Source: an uncultured Alphaproteobacteria bacterium
GTDB taxonomy: Bacteria; Pseudomonadota; Alphaproteobacteria; Rhizobiales; Beijerinckiaceae
Direction of reading: 5' to 3'
Assembly (NCBI GenBank): GCA_963773155.1
Contig: CAVZAB010000025.1
Location: 210,962-242,961, forward strand
DNA: 32,000 bases
Shown: one piece after another, positions 1 to 14,817 of the stretch
Layout: each line of letters begins with the position of its first letter
Numbering within the stretch: the first letter of the stretch is position 1
Translations under genes and position numbers: made by a program
Notes under the pieces: generated by a model
Databases searched by the model: none
What the model saw: only the letters and a program-made list of their open reading frames with translations
Told to the model about the DNA's origin: nothing

Positions 1-926
1 CCGGCGCAGCGCCCGTCGGTAAGCCGGCATTCATTCAGCGCCCGCAACTCGTCCAAATTGCGCTGGAAGGTCTGGCCGCCTGGGCTGAGAAAGTGACCGC
101 CGAGGATTTGTTCGAAGAAGGTTTTGGCGCCGTAGGGACCAAGCGTGTGTGGTGCGAGGCCCTTCTCGGCCTCGAGTGCCGCGGTTTGGCGGTCGTGGTC
201 CTTGGCTGTGAGGCCGGCGGACTGCAGCACGTCGGCATCGCGGAGGATGGCGCACATCAGCCGCACGGACGGCTGGCTAAGGGCAGCAAATTCCTGGCGC
301 AGCCGGCCGAACGAGGCGACGTCGAAATTGGGTCGCAGGCTTGCTTCGAGTACCGGATACCCTTGCACGATATCGGTCAGAAGTATGGCGCAGCGCACAG
401 CCTCGATCGCCGGTTGCTCGACTTGGTTGCGCTGCAATATAGCGCCGACACAATCGGCGGCGAGTCGCTCGAGGCGAAATGGCTCGTAAGCTCTTGCGCC
501 GCTCCGATCGGCGATCTCATTGCCTCTACCATCATGATGTATGTCATGGCCGAAAGCGGCGCAGCAGCCGAGCAGCAAATCGGCCGGCTCGAAATGCACG
601 CCGAAGGTCGCTTCGGCGCGCTCTTGGCCGAGCATGGCAAGGGTGAGCCAAATCACGCCGACTTCGAGCGAATGCATGGGATTATGATAGGAATTGCCGT
701 GACCGGACCGATCCGCCTCGCGGGCGATCATCAACAAGGCCCGCGCTTGCGGGCTTTTGGCATGGTCGCCAAACAGGCCGACGATCTGTTCGCAGATGCG
801 CCGGGAGGGTTGGCGCGCATGGCGCAGCGAATCGAGGAGCTTGGACAGGTCGAGCGAATCGGCAAGGGCGGCGCGGCTACGGCCGAGCGTAAAGGCGAAG
901 GCCTCGAAACTCGACGGTTCGTTCAT
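1..926 (-). CDS. Class-I-type 3',5'-cyclic-nucleotide phosphodiesterase-like metal-dependent hydrolase (C-terminus off the left edge)
   Basis: My own translation of the minus strand, in the frame of the ATG at 926, is open all the way to position 1. That explains its absence from the ORF track, since no stop lies in the window. It reads MNEPSSFEAFAFTLGRS...GHGNSYHNPMHSLEVGVIWL...LLLGCCAAFGHDIHHDGRGNEIADRS...AVRCAILLTDIVQGY... HDIHHDGRGNEI (513-548) fits the PDEase_I signature pattern H-D-[LIVMFY]-x-H-x-[AG]-x(2)-[NQ]-x-[LIVMFY]. YHNxxH (about 659-691) and ILLTD resemble the other class I PDE metal-site motifs. Codon usage matches neighbouring genes. The start codon is uncertain (a GTG at 947 is also possible). 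Confidence 0.7.
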   Translation of the reverse strand, partial: MNEPSSFEAFAFTLGRSRAALADSLDLSKLLDSLRHARQPSRRICEQIVGLFGDHAKSPQARALLMIAREADRSGHGNSYHNPMHSLEVGVIWLTLAMLGQERAEATFGVHFEPADLLLGCCAAFGHDIHHDGRGNEIADRSGARAYEPFRLERLAADCVGAILQRNQVEQPAIEAVRCAILLTDIVQGYPVLEASLRPNFDVASFGRLRQEFAALSQPSVRLMCAILRDADVLQSAGLTAKDHDRQTAALEAEKGLAPHTLGPYGAKTFFEQILGGHFLSPGGQTFQRNLDELRALNECRLTDGRCA

Positions 927-1164
927 GAAACGCGGCAGTCCCGCCACGATCCCCTCGGGTCGCCATGAGGCGGCGTAAGACCTTGTCCGCGGCTTCGGGG
1001 ATTTTTTTTCGGCGGTAAGCCGCAAGAGATGCCTGTCCGGTCGATCAACCCGTGCCTCGCGACTTGCGTGCTGGAGCCGGCGCTGGGCCGGATTGCATAC
1101 CCTATCGATACACTCAGCCCGTCCCTGATTTCAACCCCGCTCGCAGCAGGGACATTAACTAACT

Positions 1165-1180
1165 GAAAAAGCGCTTTTTC
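1165..1180 (-). terminator. Possible weak intrinsic terminator or palindrome directly after the K+ channel stop
   Basis: Perfect 16-nt palindrome GAAAAAGCGCTTTTTC abutting the stop codon (cta at 1180-1182 on the plus strand). The stem is AU-rich with a U-run in the 3' arm. There is no GC-rich stem, so it is weak. Confidence 0.25.
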
Positions 1181-2316
1181 TATGCCTCGGATGGGGTGGG
1201 AGCGGCGGCTGGGGCGGCGGCGGGCGCGGTCATGCGGCGGGCCGCTTCGGCGCCGATCGCGGCAGTCAGTTCAGGGCGGCTTGCCGCAAGGCCGCGGAAG
1301 TCGGCGATATCGAGAACGAGCAATTGGGTTTCTCTGGTTGTCATGACTGTCGCGTTGCGCGGGCCGCCGGTTATCAGCGCGATCTCGCCGAAGAAGGCGC
1401 CGGGACCAAGCCGCACCGATTGCGGCTCGATTAGGATTTCGACTTCGCCGGCGATGATGAAGAACATGCAATCGCCGGGCTGGCCCTTGCGGGTCACAAT
1501 CGCCCGGCTCGGCAGTTCGCGCGGCCGCAGCAAGGCTGCGAGGTCGGCGATGGTCGAGGGGCCGGCCTCGCGAAAGAAAGGTACGCGCGACAGCATGTCC
1601 CAGGATTGCAGGAAATCGCGCCGTCGCATTTCCGCGGCAAAGCTGGTGGCAAGCAGGCCGGCGAGCAGCGCGAACAGAATAATGCCGCTGACCATCACCA
1701 GGCCGCCAAGCATGCGGCCGAGTCCGGTTACCGGGACCCGGTCGCCATAGCCGGTAGTGGTCAAGGTTGTGATCGTCCACCAGAGCGCATCGCCGACGCT
1801 GCCGAAGGCGTCAGGCTGGATCTTCGCCTCGGCGAGATAGGCGAGTACCGAGGCAGCGACCAGGACAACGGCAAACAGCAGCGCCAGGCCCAGGATCGAC
1901 ACGCGCTCGCGCAACAGAACGGTCATCAGCATCTGTGGGCCTGCGGAATAGCGGGCAAAGCGCAACAGCCAGAGCGAGGCAAGCAGCGGCGCGCCATCCG
2001 GGGTCCAATAGAAGGGTGCGGCGAGGGTGATTGGCAGAATGGTCAGAAGATCGAGGGCGCCCGGCAGGGACCAGGCCCAGCCGATTCGCGCCGCCTGCGG
2101 CTCATCGGCGTTGGACGGCGGCTCGAGTTGCGGCGCGAAAGCGAGCCTGAGGGCGGCATCGGCGAGAAAAATCAGGAGGATTGCGATCAGCATGGCCTGG
2201 CAGATGAGGCGGGCCGGTTCGGAAAGATTGGGCGAGGTATTGGCCATCATGGCGACGATGCCGAGAATGATCAGACAGCCCTCCGCCAGCCGGTAGACCC
2301 TGGCCGCGGGGGCCAT
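1180..2316 (-). CDS. Cyclic-nucleotide-gated K+ channel (6TM ion-transport domain plus C-terminal cNMP-binding domain, MloK1-like)
   Basis: K+ selectivity filter TTLTTTGYGD (about 1741-1761). Multiple TM helices with an S4-like LWLLRFARY segment. The C-terminal cNMP-binding phosphate-binding cassette reads FFGEIALITGGPRNATVMT. The ORF is open to 2520, but that N-terminal extension is non-protein-like and would overlap the divergent gene. The ATG at 2316 (MAPAARVYRL...) is preferred. Confidence 0.85.
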   Translation of the reverse strand: MAPAARVYRLAEGCLIILGIVAMMANTSPNLSEPARLICQAMLIAILLIFLADAALRLAFAPQLEPPSNADEPQAARIGWAWSLPGALDLLTILPITLAAPFYWTPDGAPLLASLWLLRFARYSAGPQMLMTVLLRERVSILGLALLFAVVLVAASVLAYLAEAKIQPDAFGSVGDALWWTITTLTTTGYGDRVPVTGLGRMLGGLVMVSGIILFALLAGLLATSFAAEMRRRDFLQSWDMLSRVPFFREAGPSTIADLAALLRPRELPSRAIVTRKGQPGDCMFFIIAGEVEILIEPQSVRLGPGAFFGEIALITGGPRNATVMTTRETQLLVLDIADFRGLAASRPELTAAIGAEAARRMTAPAAAPAAAPTPSEA

Positions 2317-2573
2317 GGATTTCTGGTCGAGCAGCGCCGCCAGACGGTGCGGGGGAACTTTCGTCACTATTGTCCACTCGACTTGGGGCTGGGCGAGGCT
2401 AGGGGGCGCCCGAACCAGCTCTTTGGACGCGTGACCATTGTGCCGTGCAATCGATCCGGCGCAAGGGCTGCGCGGGTCGACAATCCGGGTCGGAGTGTGA
2501 TGAAGTGCCCGCGGCGGCATGGAAAACCGGGCTCAGGATCGAGTCCTGCGGGTGTCAGGGGAACAGGCAGGGG

Positions 2574-5246
2574 ATGGAACGCAATCTCTTTGTCTACATC
2601 TGGCGACGCACGCGGCGCGAGCAAATCTGGATTCTGATCATTATCCTTTTGTCGATGCCGGCCAATTTCGCGCTGCTCGACCTGCCGAAATCCATCGTCA
2701 ACGGGCCGATTCAGGGTCGCGGATTTGAAAATGGCGCGACCCAGCGGTTGTTTTCGATCCGCCTGCCAGCGCCGGGCTTCCTCAGCGACACGGGCAACCT
2801 CACTCTGTTCGCCGGCCTAGAACTGCAGCGCGTTCCGGCGCTGTTCCTGCTCAGCAGCGCCTTCCTTGGGCTGGTCATCATCAATGGCATGTTCAAATAT
2901 TACATCAATACCTACAAGGGCCGCCTCGGCGAGCGCATGCTTCAAGTCCTCAGATTCGAGCTTTTCGACCGAATCCTGCGGTTTCCGCCCGCTGATCTCC
3001 ACCGAGTCAAGCCGGCCGAAATCGCGACAATGATCAAGGACGAGGTCGAGCCGCTCGGCGGCTTCATCGGCGACGCCTTTGTCCAACCGTTTTTTCTCGG
3101 CGGCCAGATTGTCACTTCGCTCGCCTTCATATTCATCCAGAACATCTGGCTTGGCTGTGTGACGATTCTGCTGCTCGCCGTGCAGGGTTTGGTGATTCCG
3201 CGCCTTCGCCGCCGGCAGCTCGAATTGTCACGCCAGCGGCAAGTGTCGGCACGCGCCCTGGCTGGCCGGATCGGCGAGGTCATCGAGGACATGCCGAGCA
3301 TCCGCAGCAATGATACGGCGAATTTTCAGCGGGCCGACATTGTCAATCGTCTTACCCATGTCTTCTCGATCCGCTTTGCCTTGTACCAATGGAAGTTTTT
3401 CGTCAAGTTCCTGAACAACCTCTTGGCCCAGCTGACGCCCTTTTTTTTCTATGCGATCGGCGGCTATTTTGCGACCATCGGCCGGCTCGACATCGGTCAA
3501 TTGGTTGCGGTGATTTCTGCCTATAAGGAATTGCCTTCGCCGGTCAAGGAGCTGATCGACTGGGATCAGCAGCGGCTGGATGTGGAGGTCAAATACCATC
3601 AGGTCATCGACCAGTTCTCGGCCGAGGGGACGCTGCTGCCGGCGGCGATGCCGGAGCCACCGCGACCCTTGCCGCGACTAACCGGCGATCTTGTCTTCGA
3701 CGCGGTGACGGTGAGCGACCTATCGCATGAAAAGCTCCTGGACGGACTGAGTTTTGCTATGGCGCTTACCGAAGTCATCGCACTCGTCAACGCCGATCGC
3801 GGCGGTGCCGAAGTGGTGGCTGAAGCCATAGCCGGTCTTGCCGAAATCGATTCGGGACAAATCAGCGTTGGCGGGCGCAACCTGATCGATTGGCCGGTGT
3901 CGGTCACGGCGCGGCGGATCTCCTATGCCGGTCCGGAGCCATTCTTTCCGCAATCGACTTTGCTCGACGCATTGGTCTCCGGGCTGAAGTTTGCGGCCAG
4001 TCCGCCGCCCGATCCGGATGCTCGGGCGATCCCCAAACACTTGCAAATCATCGAAGTGGAGGGTGTCGATCTCGATTTCAATCGCGACTGGATCGACTAT
4101 GACATCGCCGGGTCGACCGGCCCCGGCGAATTATACGAGCGCGTCAAGGCCACGCTTCAGATCGTCGACCTCGACAACGATGCGGTGAGCTGGGGGCTTG
4201 ACCGCCAGCTTGATCCGCGTAGCGACAGCGAGGCTCTGCGGGAAAGGCTGGTTGCGGCAAGAGGCGCCTTTCGCAGCCGCCTCAAAGAGGCGGGGCTGAC
4301 GCATCTCGTCGAACCGTTCGACCCCGACACCTATTGCCATCAGGCCACTATTTTCGAGAACATTCTGTTTGGCACGACCCGCGGGGATGCCGCCAAATTG
4401 ATCGAAGGATCGCAGCTGCAGAAATTGCTCGCTAAGCAGCGCCTCGACGGCGATTTATTCGGCGTCGGTCGGGAGATTGCGGCAACGGTCATCGAGGTCT
4501 TTTCCGGCATTACCGCCGACAATCGGTTATTTGCGCAGCAGGCGCTGATGCCGGCCGAGGAATTCGCCGAATACGATCAAGCCTTGAAACGGCTTGGGCC
4601 GCGGACCAGTTTTGATCAGGCGAATCGAGCCGATCGCCTGCGCTTCATCCGCCTCGCTCTCAATTACATCGAACCGCGCGACCGGCTCGGTCTCCTCGAT
4701 GCCGAACTTGAAAGGCGGCTGGTCGAAGCGCGCAAGGCGTTCCGTGAGCAGCTCGGCGCCGATCAGACCGACATCGTTTTCTACGATCCGCAGACTTACA
4801 ATCCGGCCGCCTCGATCCAGGAGAACATTCTCCTCGGCAGGGTCGCTTTTGGCGTCGCCTCGGCCAGTGACCGCGTCAACGGCTTCGTGCGGACGATTGT
4901 TGACGATCTCGGGCTGCGCGACGTCGCTCTCAAGGCCGGGCTGACTTTCGACATCGGGCCGGCCGGCAAGCGCTTGTCGCGGGTCCAACGCCAGAAGCTC
5001 TCGATGGCGAGAGCCTTGCTTCGCCGGCCTGATCTTCTGGTTGCAAATGGCGCCCTTTCGGCGCTCGACGGGCTCAGTCAGGGTCAGGTGGTTAACCGAG
5101 TCCTGGCGCGGGCGCGTGGAGCGAACAACGATCAGCGCTTCGGCATTGTTTGGGCCATGGCGAGTGCGCAATTTGCCGAACATTTTGACCGAGTGCTAGT
5201 CCTCGACCATGGCAAGCGCATTGAGAATGCACAGGCCGCGAAATGA
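2574..5246 (+). CDS. ABC exporter-like fused permease/NBD protein with degenerate, expanded nucleotide-binding domain
   Basis: The N-terminal roughly 330 aa look like an ABC type-1 transmembrane domain (several long hydrophobic helices). In the C-terminal region the Walker A position reads IALVNADRGGAEV (about 3778-3816, no GKS/T). The signature reads LSRVQRQ (about 4971-4994) and Walker B reads LLVANGALSALD (about 5033-5068, with D-E replaced by N-G). About 400 aa separate the Walker A and signature positions. The start is taken at ATG 2574 (MERNLFVYIWRR...), preceded by GGGG. The ORF-track start at 2445 gives an implausible leader. Confidence 0.75.
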   Translation: MERNLFVYIWRRTRREQIWILIIILLSMPANFALLDLPKSIVNGPIQGRGFENGATQRLFSIRLPAPGFLSDTGNLTLFAGLELQRVPALFLLSSAFLGLVIINGMFKYYINTYKGRLGERMLQVLRFELFDRILRFPPADLHRVKPAEIATMIKDEVEPLGGFIGDAFVQPFFLGGQIVTSLAFIFIQNIWLGCVTILLLAVQGLVIPRLRRRQLELSRQRQVSARALAGRIGEVIEDMPSIRSNDTANFQRADIVNRLTHVFSIRFALYQWKFFVKFLNNLLAQLTPFFFYAIGGYFATIGRLDIGQLVAVISAYKELPSPVKELIDWDQQRLDVEVKYHQVIDQFSAEGTLLPAAMPEPPRPLPRLTGDLVFDAVTVSDLSHEKLLDGLSFAMALTEVIALVNADRGGAEVVAEAIAGLAEIDSGQISVGGRNLIDWPVSVTARRISYAGPEPFFPQSTLLDALVSGLKFAASPPPDPDARAIPKHLQIIEVEGVDLDFNRDWIDYDIAGSTGPGELYERVKATLQIVDLDNDAVSWGLDRQLDPRSDSEALRERLVAARGAFRSRLKEAGLTHLVEPFDPDTYCHQATIFENILFGTTRGDAAKLIEGSQLQKLLAKQRLDGDLFGVGREIAATVIEVFSGITADNRLFAQQALMPAEEFAEYDQALKRLGPRTSFDQANRADRLRFIRLALNYIEPRDRLGLLDAELERRLVEARKAFREQLGADQTDIVFYDPQTYNPAASIQENILLGRVAFGVASASDRVNGFVRTIVDDLGLRDVALKAGLTFDIGPAGKRLSRVQRQKLSMARALLRRPDLLVANGALSALDGLSQGQVVNRVLARARGANNDQRFGIVWAMASAQFAEHFDRVLVLDHGKRIENAQAAK

Positions 5247-5289
5247 TCGAATTCGGCGGGGGGCGAGGATCCAATGCGGGGAGAGTGTC

Positions 5290-5745
5290 GTGAGCCTGTT
5301 GAAGCAAGACGTTGAGGTTCTGCGTCGCGTGCCGTTGTTTGCGCCAATTGACACGGCGCGGCTAAAGCTCTTGGCCTTCACCTCGCAACGCCTGTCGTTT
5401 GAGGCCGACCAGGTCCTATTCGAGCAGAATGAGGCTGGCGACACGGCCTATGTGCTGATCGATGGGACCGCCGACGTCTTCGTCAAGGCCGGCCCGCGTG
5501 AGGTCAAGGTCGCAACCGTCGGGCGCTACGGCTTCGTCGGAGAGATTGCGATTTTGTGCGACGTGCCGCGCACCGCGACGGTACGAACGACGAGCCGGGT
5601 GGAAGCCCTAGTCATCCAGAAGGATCAATTGCTCGAGCTCTTGCGCAATTTTCCCGACATAGCCATCGCGATGATCCGGGAACTAGCTTTACGCCTCAAC
5701 CAGACCAATCAGAAACTGGCGGCGCTGGCGCAGCGGCAGAATTGA
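5290..5745 (+). CDS. Stand-alone cyclic-nucleotide-binding (CAP/CNB-fold) domain protein
   Basis: Translation includes VPLF..., LSFEADQVLFEQNEAGDTAYVLIDGTADVF..., and FVGEIAILCDVPRTATVRT, a canonical phosphate-binding cassette. The GTG at 5290 is preceded by GGGGAGAG at good spacing. The ATG at 5209 would overlap the ABC gene by 38 nt. Confidence 0.8.
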   Translation: MSLLKQDVEVLRRVPLFAPIDTARLKLLAFTSQRLSFEADQVLFEQNEAGDTAYVLIDGTADVFVKAGPREVKVATVGRYGFVGEIAILCDVPRTATVRTTSRVEALVIQKDQLLELLRNFPDIAIAMIRELALRLNQTNQKLAALAQRQN

Positions 5746-6814: not shown

Positions 6815-7225
6815 TCAGAGTTTTTTTCCGTCCGGTCCGAATTGCTTGAGATAGGCAATGACATTGTCAATATCGGTCGGATTGGGTAGGCCTTGAAAAG
6901 TCATTTTTGTGCCGGGGATCTTTGCTTTCGGATTAGGCAAATATTCCTTTAACGTAGCTTCGTCCCAAGTAATGCCCGAGTTTTTGTTAGCATCCGAAAA
7001 ATTATAGCCCTCGACGGTGCCAGCTTTGCGGCCAATCACGCCATTGAGGACCGGCCCGACGGAGTTTTTCGCCCCCTCGCCGATTTGATGGCAGACTTTG
7101 CATTTCAAGAAGACCTTTTCGCCGGCCGCCGCATCTTGTGCCAACGATTGGCCAATCGTGGCGCCGAAGCTCGCCGCTACAACGATTACAGCAAGTGACG
7201 CGCTTTTATGATCCGTTCGTTTCAT
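6815..7225 (-). CDS. cycA: Soluble class I cytochrome c (cytochrome c2/c550 type) with signal peptide
   Basis: Heme motif CKVCH and a distal Met region (KMTFQGL). Typical c2 segments GPVLNGVIGRKAG and GITWDEATLKEYLPNPKAKIPGTKM. The N-terminal signal peptide is MKRTDHKSASLAVIVVAASFG...AQD. ATG 7225 is preceded by GGAAGGAAG. Confidence 0.85.
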   Translation of the reverse strand: MKRTDHKSASLAVIVVAASFGATIGQSLAQDAAAGEKVFLKCKVCHQIGEGAKNSVGPVLNGVIGRKAGTVEGYNFSDANKNSGITWDEATLKEYLPNPKAKIPGTKMTFQGLPNPTDIDNVIAYLKQFGPDGKKL

Positions 7226-7296
7226 GCGTTTGCTTCCTTCCATTGGTGACGAAACGCCCAAAAGCCTTTTCTAATGGAATCAATGATCGCGGCAAG

Positions 7297-7344: not shown

Positions 7345-8352
7345 ATGAGCGAATGTCGACCTTTGCGGGTGATATTGGCAAAGCCGCGAGGCTTTTGTGC
7401 CGGTGTGGTTCGGGCGATTGAGATCGTTGAGCGGGCGCTGGCAATGTTTGGGCCGCCCGTCTATGTCCGACATGAAATTGTCCACAATCATCATGTCGTC
7501 GAAAGATTGCGGGCCATGGGCGCGGTTTTTGTTGACGAGCTCGACGAGATCCCGACCGGAGCCCAGACGATCTTCAGCGCGCATGGCGTTTCGCCGGCGG
7601 TGATGCGTCGGGCAAAGGAGCGCGGCCTCGATGTCATTGACGCGACCTGTCCGCTGGTCGAGCGGGTTCACCGGGAAGTGCGCCGCTACGCTGAGCGTGG
7701 CTATGAGATCGTTTTGATTGGCCATGACGGCCATGCTGAGGTGGAAGGCACGCGCGGTCAGATTGAGAGCCCGATGCACGTAATTTCGTCCAAAAACGAG
7801 GTTTTCGACTTAAAGATCGCGGATCCGACCCGGATCGCCTATGTCACCCAGACGACCCTCAGCCTGCTTGATACCAAAGAAATTATTGCAGCGCTCAAAC
7901 AGCGGTTCCCGCTAGCGGTCGGCCCGGAGACGCGCGACATTTGCTATGCGACCCAGAATCGTCAGACCGCGGTTCTGACGATGACCCATGATGTGCAACT
8001 CCTATTGGTTGTCGGCGCGCCGAACAGCTCAAATTCCAATCGTTTGCGCGAGCTGGGCGCGAGTGCCGGTGTGGCGAGCCATTTGATTCAATCCGCGGCG
8101 GCGATCGACCCAAACTGGCTTGACGGCGTTGATGTCGTTGGCGTGACGGCAGGTGCATCGGCGCCGGAAATCCTCGTCCAAGAGACGATCGAACGCCTGG
8201 CTCTCCACCGAACTCTGACCATAGAAACCCTTGCGGGCGATGATGAACTTGTCCAATTTCGGCTGCCGACGCGACTTGTGGATCCACCCGTCCTTGCCGG
8301 GGCGCGTGTTCAGGCCAGTGAAGCGGTTGATGCGACTGAACTGCGGATATGA
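7345..8352 (+). CDS. ispH: 4-hydroxy-3-methylbut-2-enyl diphosphate reductase (MEP pathway)
   Basis: LRVILAKPRGFCAGVVRAIEIVERAL...VYVRHEIVHNHHVV...TCPLV.KVH-like...GHDGHAEVEGT...VTQTTLS...ICYATQNRQ...VVGAPNSSNSNRL shows the characteristic LytB/IspH motifs, including the three Cys ligand regions. Confidence 0.95.
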   Translation: MSECRPLRVILAKPRGFCAGVVRAIEIVERALAMFGPPVYVRHEIVHNHHVVERLRAMGAVFVDELDEIPTGAQTIFSAHGVSPAVMRRAKERGLDVIDATCPLVERVHREVRRYAERGYEIVLIGHDGHAEVEGTRGQIESPMHVISSKNEVFDLKIADPTRIAYVTQTTLSLLDTKEIIAALKQRFPLAVGPETRDICYATQNRQTAVLTMTHDVQLLLVVGAPNSSNSNRLRELGASAGVASHLIQSAAAIDPNWLDGVDVVGVTAGASAPEILVQETIERLALHRTLTIETLAGDDELVQFRLPTRLVDPPVLAGARVQASEAVDATELRI

Positions 8353-8469
8353 TGGATGACCTTGCACTTTTCCGTTGAGGCATTTAGGCGCCAGGCCCGA
8401 TCGAGTTTCGCCTTTCTCTGATTGGGTCACTTGGCGCATGTTTCGACAGCGAATTGGGGTCGCCTGACA

Positions 8470-9493
8470 ATGCCAGCCTATCCGTTCTCCGCCATAGTTG
8501 CGCAAGAGACGATGAAGCTGGCGCTATTGATTGCTGCCGTTGACCCCTCCGTTGGTGGCGTATTGGTCTTCGGGGACCGCGGTACCGGCAAATCGACGGC
8601 GGTGCGCGCCTTGGCGGCTTTGCTTCCCAAAATGCGGGTCGTGAATAATTGTGCCTATAGTTGCGATCCTGGCAAACCTGCCGGCCTGTGCGGCGCGTGC
8701 GGTCCGGAGCGCAGAAAAAAGGATTTACCGAGCCATCTCGCACCCATTCCCGTCGTCGACCTGCCGCTGGGTGCGACCGAGGACCGGGTGATTGGCGCAT
8801 TGGATCTCGAGCTGGCGCTGGCCAAGGGCGAGAAGGCCTTTGAACCCGGCCTTCTCGCGCGCGCCCACCGAGGCTTTCTTTATATTGACGAGGTTAATCT
8901 TCTGGAGGATCACCTCGTTGATTTGCTGCTCGATGTCGCAGCCTCGGGCGAGAACGTTGTCGAACGGGAGGGTCTCAGTATTCGACACCCCGCGCGATTT
9001 GTCCTGGTTGGCAGCGGCAATCCAGAAGAGGGAGAATTGCGTCCGCAGCTGCTCGACCGATTTGGATTGGCGGTGGATGTCAAGACTTCCGGATAGCCTG
9101 GATGTCCGGGTTGAGGTCGTCAGTCGGCGTGACGCATATGACCGCGACCCGGCGGCTTTTTTGGCCAAATGGGACGGCAAGGATCGTAGTTTGCGGCGAC
9201 GCATCTCAGCCGCTCGGCAAAGGCTGGCCGCGGTCGATGTGCCTTTGCAGACGCTTCAGGATGCAACGAGACTGTGCATGGCGCTTGGGACGGACGGCCT
9301 TCGTGGTGAATTGACGTTGGTTCGCACGGCGCGCGCGCTAGCGGCCCTTGACGGGGACGAGACGGTCGAAGCGACGCATTTGCGGCGAATTGCTATACCG
9401 GCACTGTCGCATCGCTTGCGACGCAATCCATTGGATGATTCGTCGTCTGTCACGCGGGTTGAGCGCGCGCTTAGGGAAGTCCTCGGCCCATGA
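8470..9493 (+). pseudogene. bchI: Mg-chelatase ATPase subunit I, interrupted by a +1 frameshift near 9087-9088
   Basis: [20 protein letters not shown]...GDRGTGKST (Walker A)...[10 protein letters not shown] (Walker B)...[11 protein letters not shown], then a stop at 9094. The next frame continues [20 protein letters not shown]...GLRGELTLVRTARALAALDG...RRNPLD. Deleting one T of GACTTC (9084-9089) gives a continuous 340-aa BchI. Confidence 0.9.
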
Positions 9494-11298
9494 TGCCGCC
9501 AGAAGAAGCACGGCAACAATGGGCGGGCGATGCGACTTTGGCAGCCAAGCTTTTCGCCGTTGATCCGGTCGCAACCGGGATTGCGCTCAGGGCCGATGCC
9601 GGGCCGGTTCGCGATCTCTGGCTGTCGCAGTTGCGTCTCCTGGTCGGCTCAACTCCAATTCGACGGCTGCCGCTCAATATCAGCGACGATCGCTTGCTTG
9701 GCGGTGTTGATTTGACGGCAACTTTGCACGCTGGTCGGCTGGTCGCAGAGCGTGGCTTGCTTGCCGAGGCCGATGGCGGGATTGTTATCATGGCGATGGC
9801 GGAACGCGTGGCGCCGATGGCGGTCGCGCGGATCACCCGCATGCAAGACACGCGAAGCGTTGCTGTTGAGCGAGCCGGCCTTGGTCTCGTGCTACCCGCT
9901 CGGATCGGATTAATTGCCCTTGACGAGGGAATTGCCGCCGATGAGCGTCCGCCCGCCTCGCTTATGGATCGCCTGGCATTTCATATTGATCTAACTCAAG
10001 TCGCATTGGCGGATCTCGGCGAGCCTGGCTGCCGCCAGGAGATCGAAGCCGCGACAGACAGGCTGAGGACGCTAACCGCCGAGGCTGGCGCCGTCAGCGC
10101 ATTGTGTCGTGCCGCGATGAGCCTTGGCATAGCTTCGGTTCGCGCCCCGCTTTTTGCCTTGCAGGTCGCGCGTATTGCGGCGGCGCTGGCTCGCCGCTCA
10201 CGATTGGAAGCGCCAGATCTTGCGATCGCCGCGCGGCTCGTTTTGGCGCCGCGCGCGACGCGAGATCCCAGACAACAAACCGAGGAAGATGCCGGTCAAG
10301 CGCCCGAACAGGCCCAAAGTGAAGGAGAAGGTTCGGACATAGAGGGCGAGGCGGCTGACCAAAACCGTCAAGCGGATCGCGCTTGCGCAGCGCTTGCTGA
10401 TCTTGTCGTACAGGCCGCGGCCTCGGCACTGCCGCTTGGCCTGCTGAAGCAATGCGCGGGCGAGGGCATCCGGCATGCGAGAATGGCCAATGCCGGGCGG
10501 GCCGGTGCGTCGATGCGTTCGGCTCAGCGCGGGCGACCGATTGGGACAAGGAGCGGCCAACTCCGACAAGGACGGTTGAATATTGTGGAAACGCTACGTG
10601 CTGCAGCGCCGTGGCAGGCCCTGCGGCGACGCGAAGTGCAAACCCAAAACAACGGAACGAATATCGCTAGCGAAGGCCAGGGCCGCCTTCTGGTTCGAAC
10701 TGACGATTTTAGGTTGATCCGCTATGAGCAGCGCACGCAGACAACAACCATTTTTGCGGTTGACGCCTCCGGTTCCTCGGCTTTGCATCGTCTCGCGGAA
10801 GCTAAGGGCGCCGTTGAGCTGCTTTTGAATGATTGTTATGTCCGGCGGGATCATGTTGCGGTGCTCGCCTTTCGCGGCCAAGGTAGCGATTTGATTCTAC
10901 CGCCGACGCGCTCGTTGGTGCGGGCCAAGCGAGGCTTGGCCGGTCTGCCGGCAGGCGGTGCAACGCCGCTTGCCAGCGGTATAGCGGGCGCCACAGCGAT
11001 GGCGGAGAATATTCGTCGGCACGGGCACACGCCGATCATTGTGATTTTGACCGACGGACGGGCCAATATAGCGCGCGACGGAACTATGGGGCGGCCGCAG
11101 GCAATAGAAGATGCCCTTAGTGCTGCCCGCAATTTGAGGCAATCGGGCTGCACAACGCTGCTGATCGACACTTCGCCGCGGCCACAGGCTCTTGCCGAAC
11201 GTGTGGCGCGCGAAATGGGGGCCCGCTACCTGCCGCTTCCCTATGCCGATGCAACAAAATTATCGGAAGCGGTTCGGTTGGTTTCGGCTCCGGGTTGA
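9490..11298 (+). CDS. bchD: Mg-chelatase subunit D
   Basis: ATGA overlap with the bchI stop. It has an N-terminal AAA-like half, an acidic linker (EEDAGQAPEQAQSEGEGSDIEGEAAD) and a C-terminal vWA domain with MIDAS DASGS (FAVDASGSSAL). Confidence 0.9.
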   Translation: MMPPEEARQQWAGDATLAAKLFAVDPVATGIALRADAGPVRDLWLSQLRLLVGSTPIRRLPLNISDDRLLGGVDLTATLHAGRLVAERGLLAEADGGIVIMAMAERVAPMAVARITRMQDTRSVAVERAGLGLVLPARIGLIALDEGIAADERPPASLMDRLAFHIDLTQVALADLGEPGCRQEIEAATDRLRTLTAEAGAVSALCRAAMSLGIASVRAPLFALQVARIAAALARRSRLEAPDLAIAARLVLAPRATRDPRQQTEEDAGQAPEQAQSEGEGSDIEGEAADQNRQADRACAALADLVVQAAASALPLGLLKQCAGEGIRHARMANAGRAGASMRSAQRGRPIGTRSGQLRQGRLNIVETLRAAAPWQALRRREVQTQNNGTNIASEGQGRLLVRTDDFRLIRYEQRTQTTTIFAVDASGSSALHRLAEAKGAVELLLNDCYVRRDHVAVLAFRGQGSDLILPPTRSLVRAKRGLAGLPAGGATPLASGIAGATAMAENIRRHGHTPIIVILTDGRANIARDGTMGRPQAIEDALSAARNLRQSGCTTLLIDTSPRPQALAERVAREMGARYLPLPYADATKLSEAVRLVSAPG

Positions 11299-11313
11299 AT
11301 TTAGGATCTTCGG

Positions 11314-12201
11314 ATGATTGATGCCGATAGACCGGATTGGGCGCACGATGGTCGCGATTGGCCGCATCGACAGGCCAGTCAATTCGTTCGCGCCGGCGGC
11401 GTCCGGTGGCACGTGCAACGATTTGGGCAAGGGCCCGCCGCCCTTCTGGTCCATGGGACGGGTGCGTCGAGCCATTCTTGGTGCCGCCTCGCGGAATTGC
11501 TTGCCCAGCGTTTTACCCTTGTGATCCCGGATCTGCCCGACCATGGCTTCAGTGAAGCACCGGCCCATTACCGCCTGTCGTTGCCAGCGATGTCGGACGG
11601 TCTGCAAAAGCTTTTGAATGTTCTTGAAGTCAGTCCGGTGCTCGCGGTCGGGCATTCGGCCGGGGCAGCCGTATTGGCATCTTCCTGCCTTAAAGGGGCG
11701 ATTAAGCCTCGACTTCTGATAAGCGTCAACGGCGCCTGGTTGCCGTTTAAGGGGATCGCCGGCCAAATTTTTCCGTCGATTGCCAAGCTGCTTTACCTCA
11801 ATCCCTTTACTTCGCGCCTCTTTGCCTGGAGCGTCGATCGTTCAACGGTGCTGCGGCTGGTCGGGGAGACCGGATCGAGGATCGATGGGCAAGGTCTCGA
11901 ACTATACGAAAGATTGCTGCGGCGACCCGGGCATGTTGCGGGTGCCTTGGGCATGATGGCAAATTGGGATCTTGAGCCCCTGGTTCGACAGCTGGCTCAA
12001 CTTGAATTGCCAGTGATACTGCTTGCCGGAAGCAAAGACCGGTCGATACCTCCACAGGAGTCGCGGCGGGTTGCCGCCATGCTGCCGAACGCACGGGTGG
12101 AAATCCTGGAGGGCCTTGGACATCTTGCCCACGAAGAGCGTCCGAACGAGATCGCGGCCCTGGTCCTAAAACTTGCCGCCGAAGCGGGAATTATCGAATG
12201 A
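11314..12201 (+). CDS. bchO: Alpha/beta-hydrolase BchO (Mg-chelatase accessory protein)
   Basis: Canonical position after bchD. Alpha/beta-hydrolase motifs LLVHGTGASSHSW and nucleophile elbow GHSAG, with a C-terminal GHLAHEE. Confidence 0.8.
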   Translation: MIDADRPDWAHDGRDWPHRQASQFVRAGGVRWHVQRFGQGPAALLVHGTGASSHSWCRLAELLAQRFTLVIPDLPDHGFSEAPAHYRLSLPAMSDGLQKLLNVLEVSPVLAVGHSAGAAVLASSCLKGAIKPRLLISVNGAWLPFKGIAGQIFPSIAKLLYLNPFTSRLFAWSVDRSTVLRLVGETGSRIDGQGLELYERLLRRPGHVAGALGMMANWDLEPLVRQLAQLELPVILLAGSKDRSIPPQESRRVAAMLPNARVEILEGLGHLAHEERPNEIAALVLKLAAEAGIIE

Positions 12202-12245
12202 ATCAAGCCAGACCGGACTTGCCGTCATATCATTTACACTGCTAG

Positions 12246-12263
12246 TGTCCAACAATGCTGACA
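12246..12263. promoter_or_regulatory. PpsR/CrtJ-type palindrome candidate overlapping the crtI start codon
   Basis: TGTCCAACAATGCTGACA follows TGTC-N10-GACA. The crtI ATG (12255) lies inside the spacer. It sits in the 53-nt bchO-crtI gap. Confidence 0.35.
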
Positions 12264-13781
12264 CGTGTCACATATGCCCCGGCGGGCCCATTTGAACAAC
12301 GATCGTCGGCGGTCGTTATTGGGAGCGGGTTCGGCGGTCTTGCTGCAGCTATTCGGCTCGGTGCACGCGGTTATGCCGTAACGGTGCTTGAAAAGCTCGA
12401 TGCACCCGGCGGGCGTGCTTATGTCCACAAGCAGGACGGTTTCACGTTCGACGCTGGACCAACAATTGTAACAGCGCCCTTTCTGTTTGAGGAGCTTTGG
12501 CGCCTGTGTGGACGCAAATTCTCCGACGATGTCGAATTGCGGCCAATGGAACCGTTCTACCGGATCAGATTTCACGACGGCTCGCATTTTGACTACAGCG
12601 GCGATCGCGATGCGATGCGTTCGGAGATCATGAGAGTCTCGCCAGTCGACCTGCCCGGTTACGAAGCCTATATGCGCGAAAGCGCAGCCATTTATCGGAT
12701 CGGTTTCGAACAGCTTGGGCACGTATCGTTTGGTTCGCCGCTCGATATGCTGCGCATTGTTCCAGACCTTGTTCGGCGCCGAGCCTACCGCAGCGTCTTT
12801 GATCAGGTTGCCAAGCATATTTCGGACGAGAAGTTGCAGGCGGTGTTTAGTTTCCATCCGCTTCTCATCGGGGGTAATCCGTTCCGAGCGAGTGCCATCT
12901 ATTGTCTTATTGCCCATCTCGAGCAGAAATTTGGGGTTCATTTCGCAATGGGCGGAACGGGGCGCCTGATTGAGGGTATGGTGCGATTGATCGAGGACCA
13001 GGGCGGCATTGTCAGATACCGGGCGGAAGTTGAGAGAATCATAGTCAAGGATGGCGTCGCCCGCGGGGTTGAGCTTAGCGGGGGGGAGAGGATTCGCGCC
13101 GATATCGTCGTTTCAAATGCCGATTCCGCCTGGACCTATCGCTATCTTGTGCCCGCCGAATTGCGGCGGCGCTGGACTAACAGGAAACTCGATCGTTCGC
13201 GCTATTCGATGGGCCTGTTCGTCTGGTATTTTGGGACAAGCAAGATCTATCCCCGGGTTAAGCATCACACGATCATCTTGGGACGCCGATACCGCGAACT
13301 TATCGAGGACATTTTTGAACGTAAGATCCTCGCTTCGGATTTTTCTCTCTATCTGCACCGTCCGACCGCGAGCGATCCGTCTTTGGCGCCGGCGGGCTGC
13401 GACGCATTTTATGTCTTGTCTCCAGTTCCTAATCTCGGCGGTTCGATCGACTGGGTAGAGCGCTCAGACGAGTATCGCCAGGCGATTGCCCGGCAATTGG
13501 ATGATACCGAACTCCCAGGGTTTTTGCCGCACGTTGTTACATCGCGCGTCACAACGCCGCTCGACTTTCAAGATCGGCTTCTGTCTTACCGTGGCGCGGC
13601 TTTTGGCCTTGAACCGCTTTTGACCCAAAGCGCTTGGTTTAGACCCAACAATCGCAGCGAGGACGTCAAGCATCTCTATCTGGTCGGCGCCGGGACGCAT
13701 CCTGGGGCTGGACTGCCGGGGGTGCTGTCATCGGCGCGCGTCCTTGATATTGTGGTGCCAGATGCCGCCCTCTTCGCCTAA
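12255..13781 (+). CDS. crtI: Phytoene desaturase
   Basis: N-terminal FAD fold AVVIGSGFGGLAAAIRLGARGYAVTVLEK. The C-terminal motif is LYLVGAGTHPGAGLPGVLSSA. This is the only in-frame start after the upstream stop at 12243. Confidence 0.9.
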   Translation: MLTRVTYAPAGPFEQRSSAVVIGSGFGGLAAAIRLGARGYAVTVLEKLDAPGGRAYVHKQDGFTFDAGPTIVTAPFLFEELWRLCGRKFSDDVELRPMEPFYRIRFHDGSHFDYSGDRDAMRSEIMRVSPVDLPGYEAYMRESAAIYRIGFEQLGHVSFGSPLDMLRIVPDLVRRRAYRSVFDQVAKHISDEKLQAVFSFHPLLIGGNPFRASAIYCLIAHLEQKFGVHFAMGGTGRLIEGMVRLIEDQGGIVRYRAEVERIIVKDGVARGVELSGGERIRADIVVSNADSAWTYRYLVPAELRRRWTNRKLDRSRYSMGLFVWYFGTSKIYPRVKHHTIILGRRYRELIEDIFERKILASDFSLYLHRPTASDPSLAPAGCDAFYVLSPVPNLGGSIDWVERSDEYRQAIARQLDDTELPGFLPHVVTSRVTTPLDFQDRLLSYRGAAFGLEPLLTQSAWFRPNNRSEDVKHLYLVGAGTHPGAGLPGVLSSARVLDIVVPDAALFA

Positions 13782-14817
13782 CCGCCTCGCCGTCACCCCT
13801 GCTGATATTGCGACATGCCGGATTTCTATAAGAGACGGCTCGCACAGCTTTTACGCTGCATCGGCGCTGCTCCCGCAGGAGATTCGCACGGCCGCCCGCG
13901 GCCTATATGCTTTTTGCCGTCTTTCCGATGACGCGATTGATCTTGATGGAGGCTGCCTGGCTGCGTTCGAGCGCTTGCAGGAGCGACTTAATCGAATCTA
14001 TCAGGGGCGGCCCATGTCAATCCCTGCAGATCGAGCGCTCGCCGATATTGTCTACCGCTACGCAATCCCTCGCGCCCTGCCGGATGCCTTGCTCGAGGGG
14101 CTCGAATGGGACGCAAAGTCGCGACGTTATGAAGAACTCGCGGATCTCTTCGCTTACGCGACCCGCGTTGCGGGATCCGTCGGGGCAATCATGACTTTGA
14201 TAATGGGCGTGCGGGCGCCGGACGTTGTTGCGCGGGCCTGCGATTTGGGAATCGCAATGCAGCTCACCAACATTGCGAGGGATGTTGGTGAGGACGCTCG
14301 GCGAGGAAGGGTCTATTTACCTTTGCGATGGTTGAGGGATGCTAAGATTGATCCGGATGGGTTTCTTGCGGCACCTCAATTGAGCGATGCACTGCGCCAT
14401 GTTGTCCGGCGCCTTCTCAGAACTGCCGATACCTTATATGCGCGCTCCGAGGGAGGTATCGCGGGTTTGCCTATGGGCTGCCGGCCCGCGATCTATGCCG
14501 CCCGCTTCATCTATGCGGAGATTGGGCGGGAAATCGAACGCAATGGGCTCGATAGCCTATCAACTCGAGCGCACGTGTCGTCGAAAAGAAAAGCATGGCT
14601 CATTCTTGGCGCTGGAGTTGCGGCGCTGATTGGCAAGCCGGGACGGGCGTCGCCCTGTGTCGAGGAGGCGCAATTTCTGATCGAAGCTGTAAGAGCCTCG
14701 CATCAATCCGCCTGGACGACGCTCGACTTATCTCGGCTGCGGTGGTGGAACCTTGTCGGCCAGGTCAATTGGTTTGTTGATCTTGTCGAGAAGTTGGAGC
14801 GCCGCGAACAATATTGA
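13762..14817 (+). CDS. crtB: Phytoene synthase
   Basis: SHSFYAAS...LYAFCRLSDDAIDL...YAYATRVAGSVG...NIARDVGEDARRGRVYLP are squalene/phytoene synthase motifs. The start is either ATG 13762 or 13744, and both overlap the crtI 3' end. Confidence 0.9.
   Translation: MPPSSPNRLAVTPADIATCRISIRDGSHSFYAASALLPQEIRTAARGLYAFCRLSDDAIDLDGGCLAAFERLQERLNRIYQGRPMSIPADRALADIVYRYAIPRALPDALLEGLEWDAKSRRYEELADLFAYATRVAGSVGAIMTLIMGVRAPDVVARACDLGIAMQLTNIARDVGEDARRGRVYLPLRWLRDAKIDPDGFLAAPQLSDALRHVVRRLLRTADTLYARSEGGIAGLPMGCRPAIYAARFIYAEIGREIERNGLDSLSTRAHVSSKRKAWLILGAGVAALIGKPGRASPCVEEAQFLIEAVRASHQSAWTTLDLSRLRWWNLVGQVNWFVDLVEKLERREQY

Follow-up and report, generated by a model that had tools for sequence, protein, structure and literature searches.

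The window analysed here is a whole 32-kb stretch of contig CAVZAB010000025.1, from an uncultured alphaproteobacterium, and all coordinates are counted from its first letter. Its left end carries four adjacent genes related, by the domains of their products, to cyclic nucleoside monophosphates (cNMP): these code for a hydrolase resembling class I phosphodiesterases (PDE-like), a potassium channel, a protein resembling an ATP-binding cassette (ABC) exporter but devoid of its catalytic motifs (pseudo-ABC), and a small protein made of a cyclic-nucleotide-binding (CNB) domain. An earlier note, made by reading the sequence alone, had called these four genes and their domains and had quoted two phosphate-binding cassettes (PBCs); an open reading frame (ORF) and Pfam check agrees with the calls at the positions given below, and both cassettes are found in the translated sequences. 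This text deals mainly with the pair of genes for pseudo-ABC and the CNB protein, which points to an uncharacterised cyclic-nucleotide effector. The features of the locus are the following.

2574..5246, + strand: pseudo-ABC exporter-like protein, 890 aa, core component 1 (Pfam/NCBIfam, alignments and AlphaFold2 (AF2) model)
3780..3812, + strand: Walker A-equivalent segment ALVNADRGGAE, with the P-loop Lys and Ser/Thr replaced (alignment to PCAT1 and MsbA)
3891..5078, + strand: three tandem Q-loop/helical-subdomain segments (hhalign on sub-alignments)
5034..5051, + strand: Walker B-equivalent LLVANG, Asp-Glu changed to Asn-Gly (alignment to PCAT1 and MsbA)
5290..5745, + strand: stand-alone CNB protein, 151 aa, core component 2 and predicted regulatory subunit of pseudo-ABC (PF00027, E 7e-19)
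5533-5583, + strand: PBC of the CNB protein, FVGEIAILCDVPRTATV, conserved across the CNB-only family
1..926, - strand: class-I-PDE-like HD-type hydrolase, the N-terminal 308 aa of ca. 322, with the ca. 14 C-terminal aa past the left edge
1180..2316, - strand: predicted MloK1-type cyclic-nucleotide-gated K+ channel (Pfam Ion_trans, Ion_trans_2 and cNMP_binding)
2317..2573, no strand: divergent intergenic region between the channel and pseudo-ABC genes (sequence read)

Pseudo-ABC combines a six-helix transmembrane domain of type IV exporters (TMD, ca. residues 1-350; PF00664, ABC_membrane, E 6e-15) with an enlarged and degenerate nucleotide-binding domain (NBD, ca. residues 370-890), to which ABC_tran matches with the C-terminal third of the model only. 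In the position of Walker A, NADRGGAEV aligns with GESGSGKTT of PCAT1, the family consensus being SGAET, and the pattern GxxxxGK[ST] occurs in none of 120 members encoded apart from the CNB protein (split) and in two of 120 members fused to it. The Walker B segment LLVANG aligns with ILILDE, and the family has Asn-Arg or Asn-Gly in place of the acidic pair (consensus LIVNR); the Q-loop Gln is changed to Gly or Pro in the family, and the H-loop His is missing. The signature reads LSRVQ, of which only L-S-x-x-Q is kept, with variable residues at the Gly-Gly positions, and the D-loop SALD and a QRQ...ARAL helix are still present. The loss of the ATP-hydrolysis motifs, already pointed out in the earlier note, extends to Walker A, Walker B and the H-loop, and fused forms are catalytically degenerate too. 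Judging from these changes, canonical ATP binding and hydrolysis would have been lost from the pseudo-NBD, and pseudo-ABC is predicted to be independent of ATP in vivo.

The degenerate domain has also been rebuilt. Its approximately 300 additional residues are due to a Q-loop/helical-subdomain segment that occurs three times (residues 440-575, 576-730 and 731-835) and whose copies are recognizably related in hhalign comparisons (segment 1 vs 3, probability 94.5 %, E 8e-8; segment 2 vs 3, 97.6 %, E 3e-12). The AF2 model has a pLDDT of 80 overall and of ca. 90 in the NBD region (ca. 85-93 in the repeats), and a Foldseek search with it returned TmrAB, PCAT1, MsbA and Pgp as top matches (E about 1e-14, ca. 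12 % identity); as modeled, the fold is that of a type IV exporter. More than 4,500 homologs of pseudo-ABC were found, the best 120 all being of about 900 aa. Conservation among them is inverted with respect to normal ABC exporters, because most of the invariant residues lie in the TMD, in a periplasmic loop (LDLPKxIVNGPIQGxGFE) and in intracellular loop 1 (ICL1; MIKDEVEP), and not in the NBD. Both pseudo-ABC and the CNB protein carry generic names at NCBI, and no NCBIfam model reaches its cut-off for either of them.

The CNB gene has a GTG start codon preceded by the Shine-Dalgarno sequence GGGGAGAG and is situated 43 nt after the stop codon of the pseudo-ABC gene. Its product keeps the canonical cassette, Gly-Glu...Pro-Arg-Thr-Ala-Thr-Val, with the cNMP-contact residues of the family alignment. 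The conservation of this arrangement was examined by tblastn with the four proteins, including 8 kb on either side, in a set of 80 other loci from other Hyphomicrobiales, one gammaproteobacterium and a few metagenome-assembled genomes (MAGs). A CNB-only gene (41-60 % identity) lies directly 3' of the pseudo-ABC gene and on the same strand in all 80, mostly with gaps of less than 120 nt, and at least 587 genome loci, counted over species-level genomes, encode a relative of pseudo-ABC. The members of the CNB-only family have 150-165 aa and no helix-turn-helix (HTH). The possibility of a truncated Crp/Fnr regulator, contemplated in the earlier note, was therefore rejected: there is no HTH_Crp match, the same short family is present in 80/80 loci, and a convergent enoyl-CoA hydratase gene begins 4 nt past the end of the CNB gene.

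Both proteins also occur in nature as a single polypeptide. Fused forms were found in Sulfitobacter indolifex (1,034 aa) and Azospirillum thermophilum (1,020 aa), with the domain order ABC_membrane, degenerate ABC_tran and C-terminal cNMP_binding. A search with the Azospirillum protein retrieved, among the best 120 clusters, a great majority with ABC_membrane plus cNMP_binding and ca. 1,000-1,050 aa (more than 100 cluster representatives), coming from Rhodospirillales, Chromatiales, Granulosicoccus and sponge symbionts. Many Alpha- and Gammaproteobacteria have the fused form, with ca. 1,020 aa. Since these fusions exist and the order of the two genes is the same as that of the fused domains, the 151-aa protein can be seen, by the Rosetta-stone argument, as a detached regulatory domain of pseudo-ABC. 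The earlier note had proposed with caution that the CNB protein partners the ABC-like permease; strict adjacency and natural fusions strongly support this proposal, which is the best founded part of its interpretation. Two of the fused proteins are peculiar: P0253 (1169 aa) bears an extra GGDEF domain (PF00990), which hints at cross-talk between cNMP and cyclic di-GMP, and P0232 (1039 aa) comes from a eukaryotic proteome set (eukprot g606.t1), where it is probably a bacterial contamination or a symbiont sequence.

The set of four genes has a much narrower distribution than the pair. All of them are present in a syntenic locus (L081) with ca. 89 % DNA identity and a 93 % identical ABC-like protein; loci L083-L085, whose ABC-like protein is 71 % identical, contain the PDE-like, ABC-like and CNB genes, with a 93-aa ORF in place of the channel. 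Neither the PDE-like gene nor the channel was found by tblastn within 8 kb of the pair in any of the 80 other loci, in which the apparent channel matches correspond to the cyclic-nucleotide-binding domain (CNBD) of the channel cross-matching the CNB gene. The earlier note had considered the four genes as one island, a self-contained module, and had made this depend on their co-occurrence in related genomes; as they do not co-occur beyond close relatives, a conserved island is not supported, and the conserved unit is only the pseudo-ABC/CNB pair. We read the PDE-like gene and the channel as a lineage-specific accretion of genes sharing a ligand, rather than as obligate partners of the pair. The idea of a cNMP module is nevertheless valid for the pseudo-ABC/CNB family, which frequently has cyclases and a hydrolase of the metallo-beta-lactamase (MBL) fold nearby, and not for the four-gene composition seen in the window.

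Class III cyclases, with Pfam Guanylate_cyc confirmed, are encoded within 8 kb of the pair in 31 of the 80 loci, often as Fer2-cyclase or CHASE2-cyclase fusions. In 16 loci the cyclase is on the same strand and at most 4 kb downstream of the CNB gene, several starting directly after it, and in a Rhodospirillales MAG (L100) a CHASE2-cyclase gene starts 3 nt after the fused gene. The form in which a 2Fe-2S ferredoxin domain (Fer2) is fused to Guanylate_cyc, of ca. 550-590 aa, was seen directly downstream of the pair in several families (L009:11275-12927, L024:11244-12956, L014:13978-15687 and L042:13625-15385); its domains suggest a redox-sensing cyclase feeding the module. An MBL-fold hydrolase gene directly follows the CNB gene, on the same strand, in 15/76 loci. 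Its product resembles NF041851, the model of a cyclic-nucleotide-degrading phosphodiesterase, with E values down to 4e-18 but with scores far below the model cut-off, and its similarity to RNase Z is equally strong; we take NF041851 to be built on Rv1339, an MBL-fold cyclic AMP (cAMP) PDE. At the level of the family, therefore, the pair is embedded among genes for cNMP synthesis and, probably, also for cNMP turnover.

Glycosyltransferases are a second recurrent neighbour. Three of them (GT28-C-like, GT4 and GT28-C-like) are encoded directly upstream of the pair, or divergently from it, in 59 of the 71 loci with enough upstream sequence for this count, as in Rhizobium leguminosarum WSM1325 and on pSymB of Sinorhizobium meliloti, and the fused gene of Sulfitobacter is downstream of four glycosyltransferase genes, a deacetylase and a sugar dehydrogenase. 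This context and the high conservation of the TMD suggest that the substrate is specific and probably a glycoconjugate. In three distant lineages the pair or the fusion adjoins genes for an ABC importer of the Opp type, composed of a fused double ATPase, an SBP_bac_5 protein and two permeases: Rhizobiaceae, with R. leguminosarum as an example (L091, 1-5114), Azospirillum (L095, 10213-15572) and a Chromatiales symbiont (L102, 2790-8727). Other neighbours were observed in passing. A conserved protein of ca. 260 aa, with no Pfam or NCBIfam match, is encoded beside an extra GT4 gene near the pair in 24 loci (L024:2094-2867, L001:12065-12868, L003:11371-12162 and L053:12308-13078, all on the - strand, are examples). 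The S. meliloti pSymB pair (L092) is flanked by genes for class I SAM (S-adenosylmethionine) and FkbM-family methyltransferases (8052-8726 and 12357-13106), and a Methyltransf_21 gene lies near the fused gene of L102, so that the presumed product may be methylated.

The PDE-like protein gives a borderline Pfam result. PF00233 (PDEase_I) scores 24.7 bits on the fragment contained in the window, with a cut-off of 24.8, and aligns over positions 1-85 of 238 only; the full-length ortholog from L081 scores 22.3 bits, and some members of the wider family are above the cut-off, with 25.9-54.5 bits. Among 32 aligned homologs, residues H81, H85, H127, D128 and D232 never vary; they correspond to the H..H/HD/D metal ligands of class I PDEs, and the sequence HDIHHDGRGNEI fits the class I PDE signature HD[LIVMFY]xHx[AG]xx[NQ]x[LIVMFY], presumably PROSITE PS00126; 31 of these 32 proteins have the core HDxxHx[AG], and 10 the full pattern. 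When the family profile was compared with PDB, all 48 matches at E <= 0.01 were class I PDEs, the best being the RhoPDE domain (5vyd, E 4.7e-6), aligned through the last Asp. Likewise, the AF2 model (pLDDT 91, pTM 0.91) retrieved from PDB by Foldseek only class I PDE catalytic domains among the top 50 structures, PDE4D, PDE4B, TcrPDEC1, PDE1B, PDE8A and RhoPDE included, with TM-scores of 0.52-0.63 (about 0.6) over ca. 330 columns, that is, over the full length. Since conserved residues and signature, profile comparison and modeled structure are three independent lines, the protein is, as far as sequence and model can tell, a real homolog of class I PDE catalytic domains, in spite of the indecisive Pfam score.

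With its eukaryotic relatives (PDE4, PDE7, PDE8, TcrPDEC and RhoPDE) the protein shares the fold, at a TM-score of ca. 0.6, the H..H...HD...D metal ligands and the motif HDxxHxGxxN; unlike them, it is prokaryotic and stand-alone, has ca. 320 aa and only ca. 15 % identity, and its Pfam match is limited to the N-terminal third and lies at the threshold. A word-indexed search found only 34 relatives, whereas an exhaustive profile search yielded 918 clusters (50 % identity) at E <= 0.001, 505 of them at E <= 1e-10. Stand-alone proteins of 270-400 aa predominate and a few members are fused; the multidomain ones include REC-GAF-HD_5-PDE-like, PRPP-synthetase-PDE-like and PDE-like-UPF0167 architectures, and P0334 (1021 aa), P0381 (645 aa) and P0349 (1146 aa) belong among them. 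Most members have either no Pfam match or a sub-threshold PDEase_I match only, which indicates that current models cover the family poorly. A literature search for bacterial class I PDEs gave nothing relevant.

Elsewhere, members of this PDE-like family are encoded in unrelated contexts: in a urease cluster, with PFOR genes, beside a receiver domain, or with a histidine kinase gene on one side and a GGDEF gene on the other; one (L087/L088) is accompanied by Nif11 peptides and a directly adjoining class III cyclase, and another (L089) adjoins a Crp-type regulator. In the lineage of the window, the gene is always followed, ca. 35 nt downstream and in the same direction, by a gene for a DAO-family FAD oxidoreductase, after which come arginase and aminotransferase genes (L081:6223-8374, L083:7174-9320 and L096:1657-3803). 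It may belong to this transcription unit and not to that of the pseudo-ABC/CNB pair. From its homology, the PDE-like protein would probably degrade a cNMP signal in this lineage.

The channel, in turn, has six transmembrane helices, a TTGYGD filter and a C-terminal CNBD with the PBC FFGEIALITGGPRNATV. It matches over its full length MloK1 of Mesorhizobium loti (mll3241; E 1e-67), with the same architecture of six helices, pore and CNBD, and by sequence it is an ordinary member of this well-studied family, with no difference of note. Its position beside the pseudo-ABC/CNB pair is specific to this lineage.

We consider it probable, with moderate confidence, that the functional unit of the locus is a two-gene cyclic-nucleotide effector, composed of pseudo-ABC and the CNB protein and working as follows. 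Pseudo-ABC would be a homodimeric protein with an exporter fold whose pseudo-NBD no longer uses ATP, and on whose C-terminal pseudo-NBD the CNB protein probably docks. Binding of cAMP or cyclic GMP (cGMP) to the CNB protein would change the NBD-like dimer and, through it, the state of the membrane domain, so that the passage or flipping of a substrate might be gated or regulated without ATP. In other lineages, this substrate would most likely be a glycoconjugate. The cNMP would come from class III cyclases, which in many other genomes are encoded in the same operon and here should be outside the window; the presence of cyclase genes in those operons is indirect support for binding of cAMP or cGMP by the CNB protein. 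Only in the present lineage would the class-I-like PDE probably degrade the signal, with the MloK1-type channel sharing the ligand. A bolder version, which we advance only as speculation and judge rather unlikely, has cNMP bound to the CNB protein replacing ATP in the opening and closing of the NBD-like dimer. The pair or fusion would then be an exporter or channel gated by cNMP and independent of ATP, and its cargo would often be a glycoconjugate produced by the glycosyltransferases next to it; class III cyclases of the operon would feed it, and recruited PDEs of different folds, class-I-like here and MBL elsewhere, would reset it.

An ABC exporter fold without ATP-powered transport has precedents. 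SbmA/BacA consists of an ABC-type TMD without any NBD and is driven by protons, and CFTR is an ABC protein used as a gated channel, which is controlled by phosphorylation and has kept ATP binding and hydrolysis; unlike what we propose for pseudo-ABC, neither of them uses a CNB subunit. The homodimeric type IV exporters considered here (MsbA, PglK, NdvA/ChvA, PCAT1 and TmrAB) share with pseudo-ABC the TMD fold and the order TMD-NBD, but at ca. 12 % identity, and differ from it in that pseudo-ABC has lost the catalytic motifs, has a triplicated helical subdomain and is more conserved in the TMD than in the NBD. Several canonical type IV exporters export or flip glycolipids or glycans, which fits with the glycosyltransferases found next to the pair in most loci.

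The nearest studied system is HetC of Nostoc PCC 7120, which is also the one ABC exporter carrying a CNB domain for which we found experimental work. HetC is an ATPase-active exporter of the PCAT type; its CNB domain is N-terminal and needed for function, it also contains a C39 peptidase domain, and its ATPase catalytic residue is essential (PMC10986499). HetC and the window pair have in common a type IV exporter fold combined with a cNMP-binding-type domain; in contrast to HetC, the window protein lacks a peptidase domain and has an NBD that is both enlarged and fully degenerate, and the CNB domain is separate, or fused at the C-terminus, and has a canonical PBC. The CNB protein also matches TIGR03896 (cyc_nuc_ocin), with E 1e-10 and 41.5 bits, far below the cut-off of 161. 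This NCBIfam-curated "bacteriocin-type transport-associated" CNB protein is likewise tied genomically to ABC exporters, but it has 317 aa and its link is with NHLP bacteriocin export, in which the PCAT-type transporters are active. Two other candidates were rejected. The S. meliloti 1021 homolog of the pair (pSymB 841,723-844,996) is not the polysaccharide exporter MsbA2 (SMb21191), whose operon is at a different pSymB locus, at ca. 938 kb (PMC3687685). Similarly, a PADLOC search for anti-phage cNMP systems (Pycsar/CBASS) gave only matches at the level of the CNB domain and none for the ABC-like and PDE-like proteins, and a Pycsar-like system was discarded because the similarity is that of a generic CNB domain.

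Several observations weigh against the proposed two-gene effector. A class III cyclase could not be detected at any point of the 32-kb window, in agreement with the earlier note, which had seen none, and neither the glycosyltransferases nor the Opp-like importer are present in the window or, in L081, in 10 kb further left. The association of the PDE-like gene and the channel with the pair is based on adjacency in one lineage, and literature searches on the pseudo-ABC/CNB pair found nothing. CNB domains can also recognise other ligands, as that of HetC binds ppGpp and not cAMP (PMC10986499), and the ligand of the window protein may likewise be something other than a cNMP. Lastly, pseudo-ABC keeps the signature-like LSxxQRQK and the D-loop SALD, which makes it conceivable that it forms a heterodimer with a canonical half-transporter of the ABC type from another locus.

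Such a heterodimer, of which pseudo-ABC would be the non-catalytic half of an ATP-driven transporter with the CNB protein as a mere modulator, seems to us very improbable. There is good precedent for heterodimeric exporters in which one site is degenerate, TmrAB is among the top fold matches and the signature and D-loop are in part kept; nevertheless, known degenerate halves usually retain a Walker A, which pseudo-ABC lacks, the Ser-Gly-Gly positions of its signature are variable, the Q-loop Gln and H-loop His are lost, and the conserved neighbourhood of the 80 loci includes no second ABC exporter gene. At the opposite extreme, pseudo-ABC might not transport at all and act instead as a membrane scaffold or sensor relaying the cNMP state, via the CNB protein, to the adjacent glycosyltransferases or cyclases. 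This would agree with the stronger conservation of the TMD, the periplasmic loop motif and ICL1 as compared with the NBD and with the co-localization of the pair with both types of genes, but we find it improbable, as the complete TMD fold of an exporter is kept, with good model confidence, and glycosyltransferases are absent from the window and from many loci with the fused form. A regulated passage of substrate, as in the two-gene effector, is the function that we favour for pseudo-ABC.

The remaining alternatives concern the PDE-like gene. If the four genes were a self-contained island, the channel and the CNB/pseudo-ABC pair would both respond to a cNMP level controlled by the PDE. In favour of this are the domains of all four products and the position of the PDE-like gene beside the pair in the 93 % and 71 % relatives, as well as the candidate MBL-fold PDE and the cyclases adjoining the pair elsewhere, which show that the pair does tend to recruit cNMP-turnover genes. 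Still, the island is doubtful given that the channel is already missing in the 71 % relative, that both genes are absent around the pair in 80/80 other loci, that the PDE-like family appears elsewhere in unrelated contexts (urease, PFOR and histidine kinase/GGDEF genes) and that the PDE-like gene is co-directional with the DAO gene and not with the pair. It is a more serious possibility, if a somewhat unlikely one, that the PDE-like protein, as a phosphohydrolase of the HD family, has a substrate other than 3',5'-cNMP and is encoded next to CNB genes by coincidence. The Pfam score just under the cut-off, the confinement of the sequence match to the N-terminal metal-binding half and the heterogeneous gene contexts would agree with this; on the other side are the invariant metal ligands, a full-length fold match specific to class I PDEs (50 structural and 48 PDB profile matches), and the members that adjoin a cyclase (L088) or a Crp-type regulator (L089).

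To our knowledge, few bacterial effectors of cAMP or cGMP have been described beyond Crp-type regulators, and rhizobia have dozens of class III cyclases, for most of which no output is known. The pair offers a concrete and testable candidate for a non-transcriptional cNMP output, in a family that is present in tractable hosts such as S. meliloti (pSymB), R. leguminosarum, Mesorhizobium, Agrobacterium and Azospirillum. In pseudo-ABC, moreover, nature would provide an exporter fold of the ABC type that, to judge by its motifs, has abandoned ATP hydrolysis and had its NBD rebuilt, which bears on how ligand binding is coupled to movement of the membrane domain in ABC proteins. The stand-alone, mostly unannotated prokaryotic class-I-like PDE family is a second, smaller lead.

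As for the rest of the window, no inverted repeats or regulatory palindromes were found in the intergenic regions, nor any regulatory site in the divergent one at 2317..2573. A cytochrome c gene is located at 6815-7261 (- strand), and the region ca. 7345-14800 contains ispH and then a photosynthesis gene cluster, which suggests that the source organism is probably phototrophic; by synteny with the L081 gene table, this cluster includes bchI, bchD and genes for an alpha/beta-hydrolase and for crtI-like and crtB-like products. In place of an intact bchI, the gene for Mg-chelatase subunit I (8422-9493), there are two ORFs that overlap (8422-9096 and 8792-9493). Around 9085-9090, the window contains an insertion of 1 nt (AAGACTTCCGGATAG, vs AAGAC-ACCGGATAC in the syntenic L081), which shifts the frame and creates a TAG stop codon, and the split bchI is thus either a pseudogene or a sequencing or assembly error.

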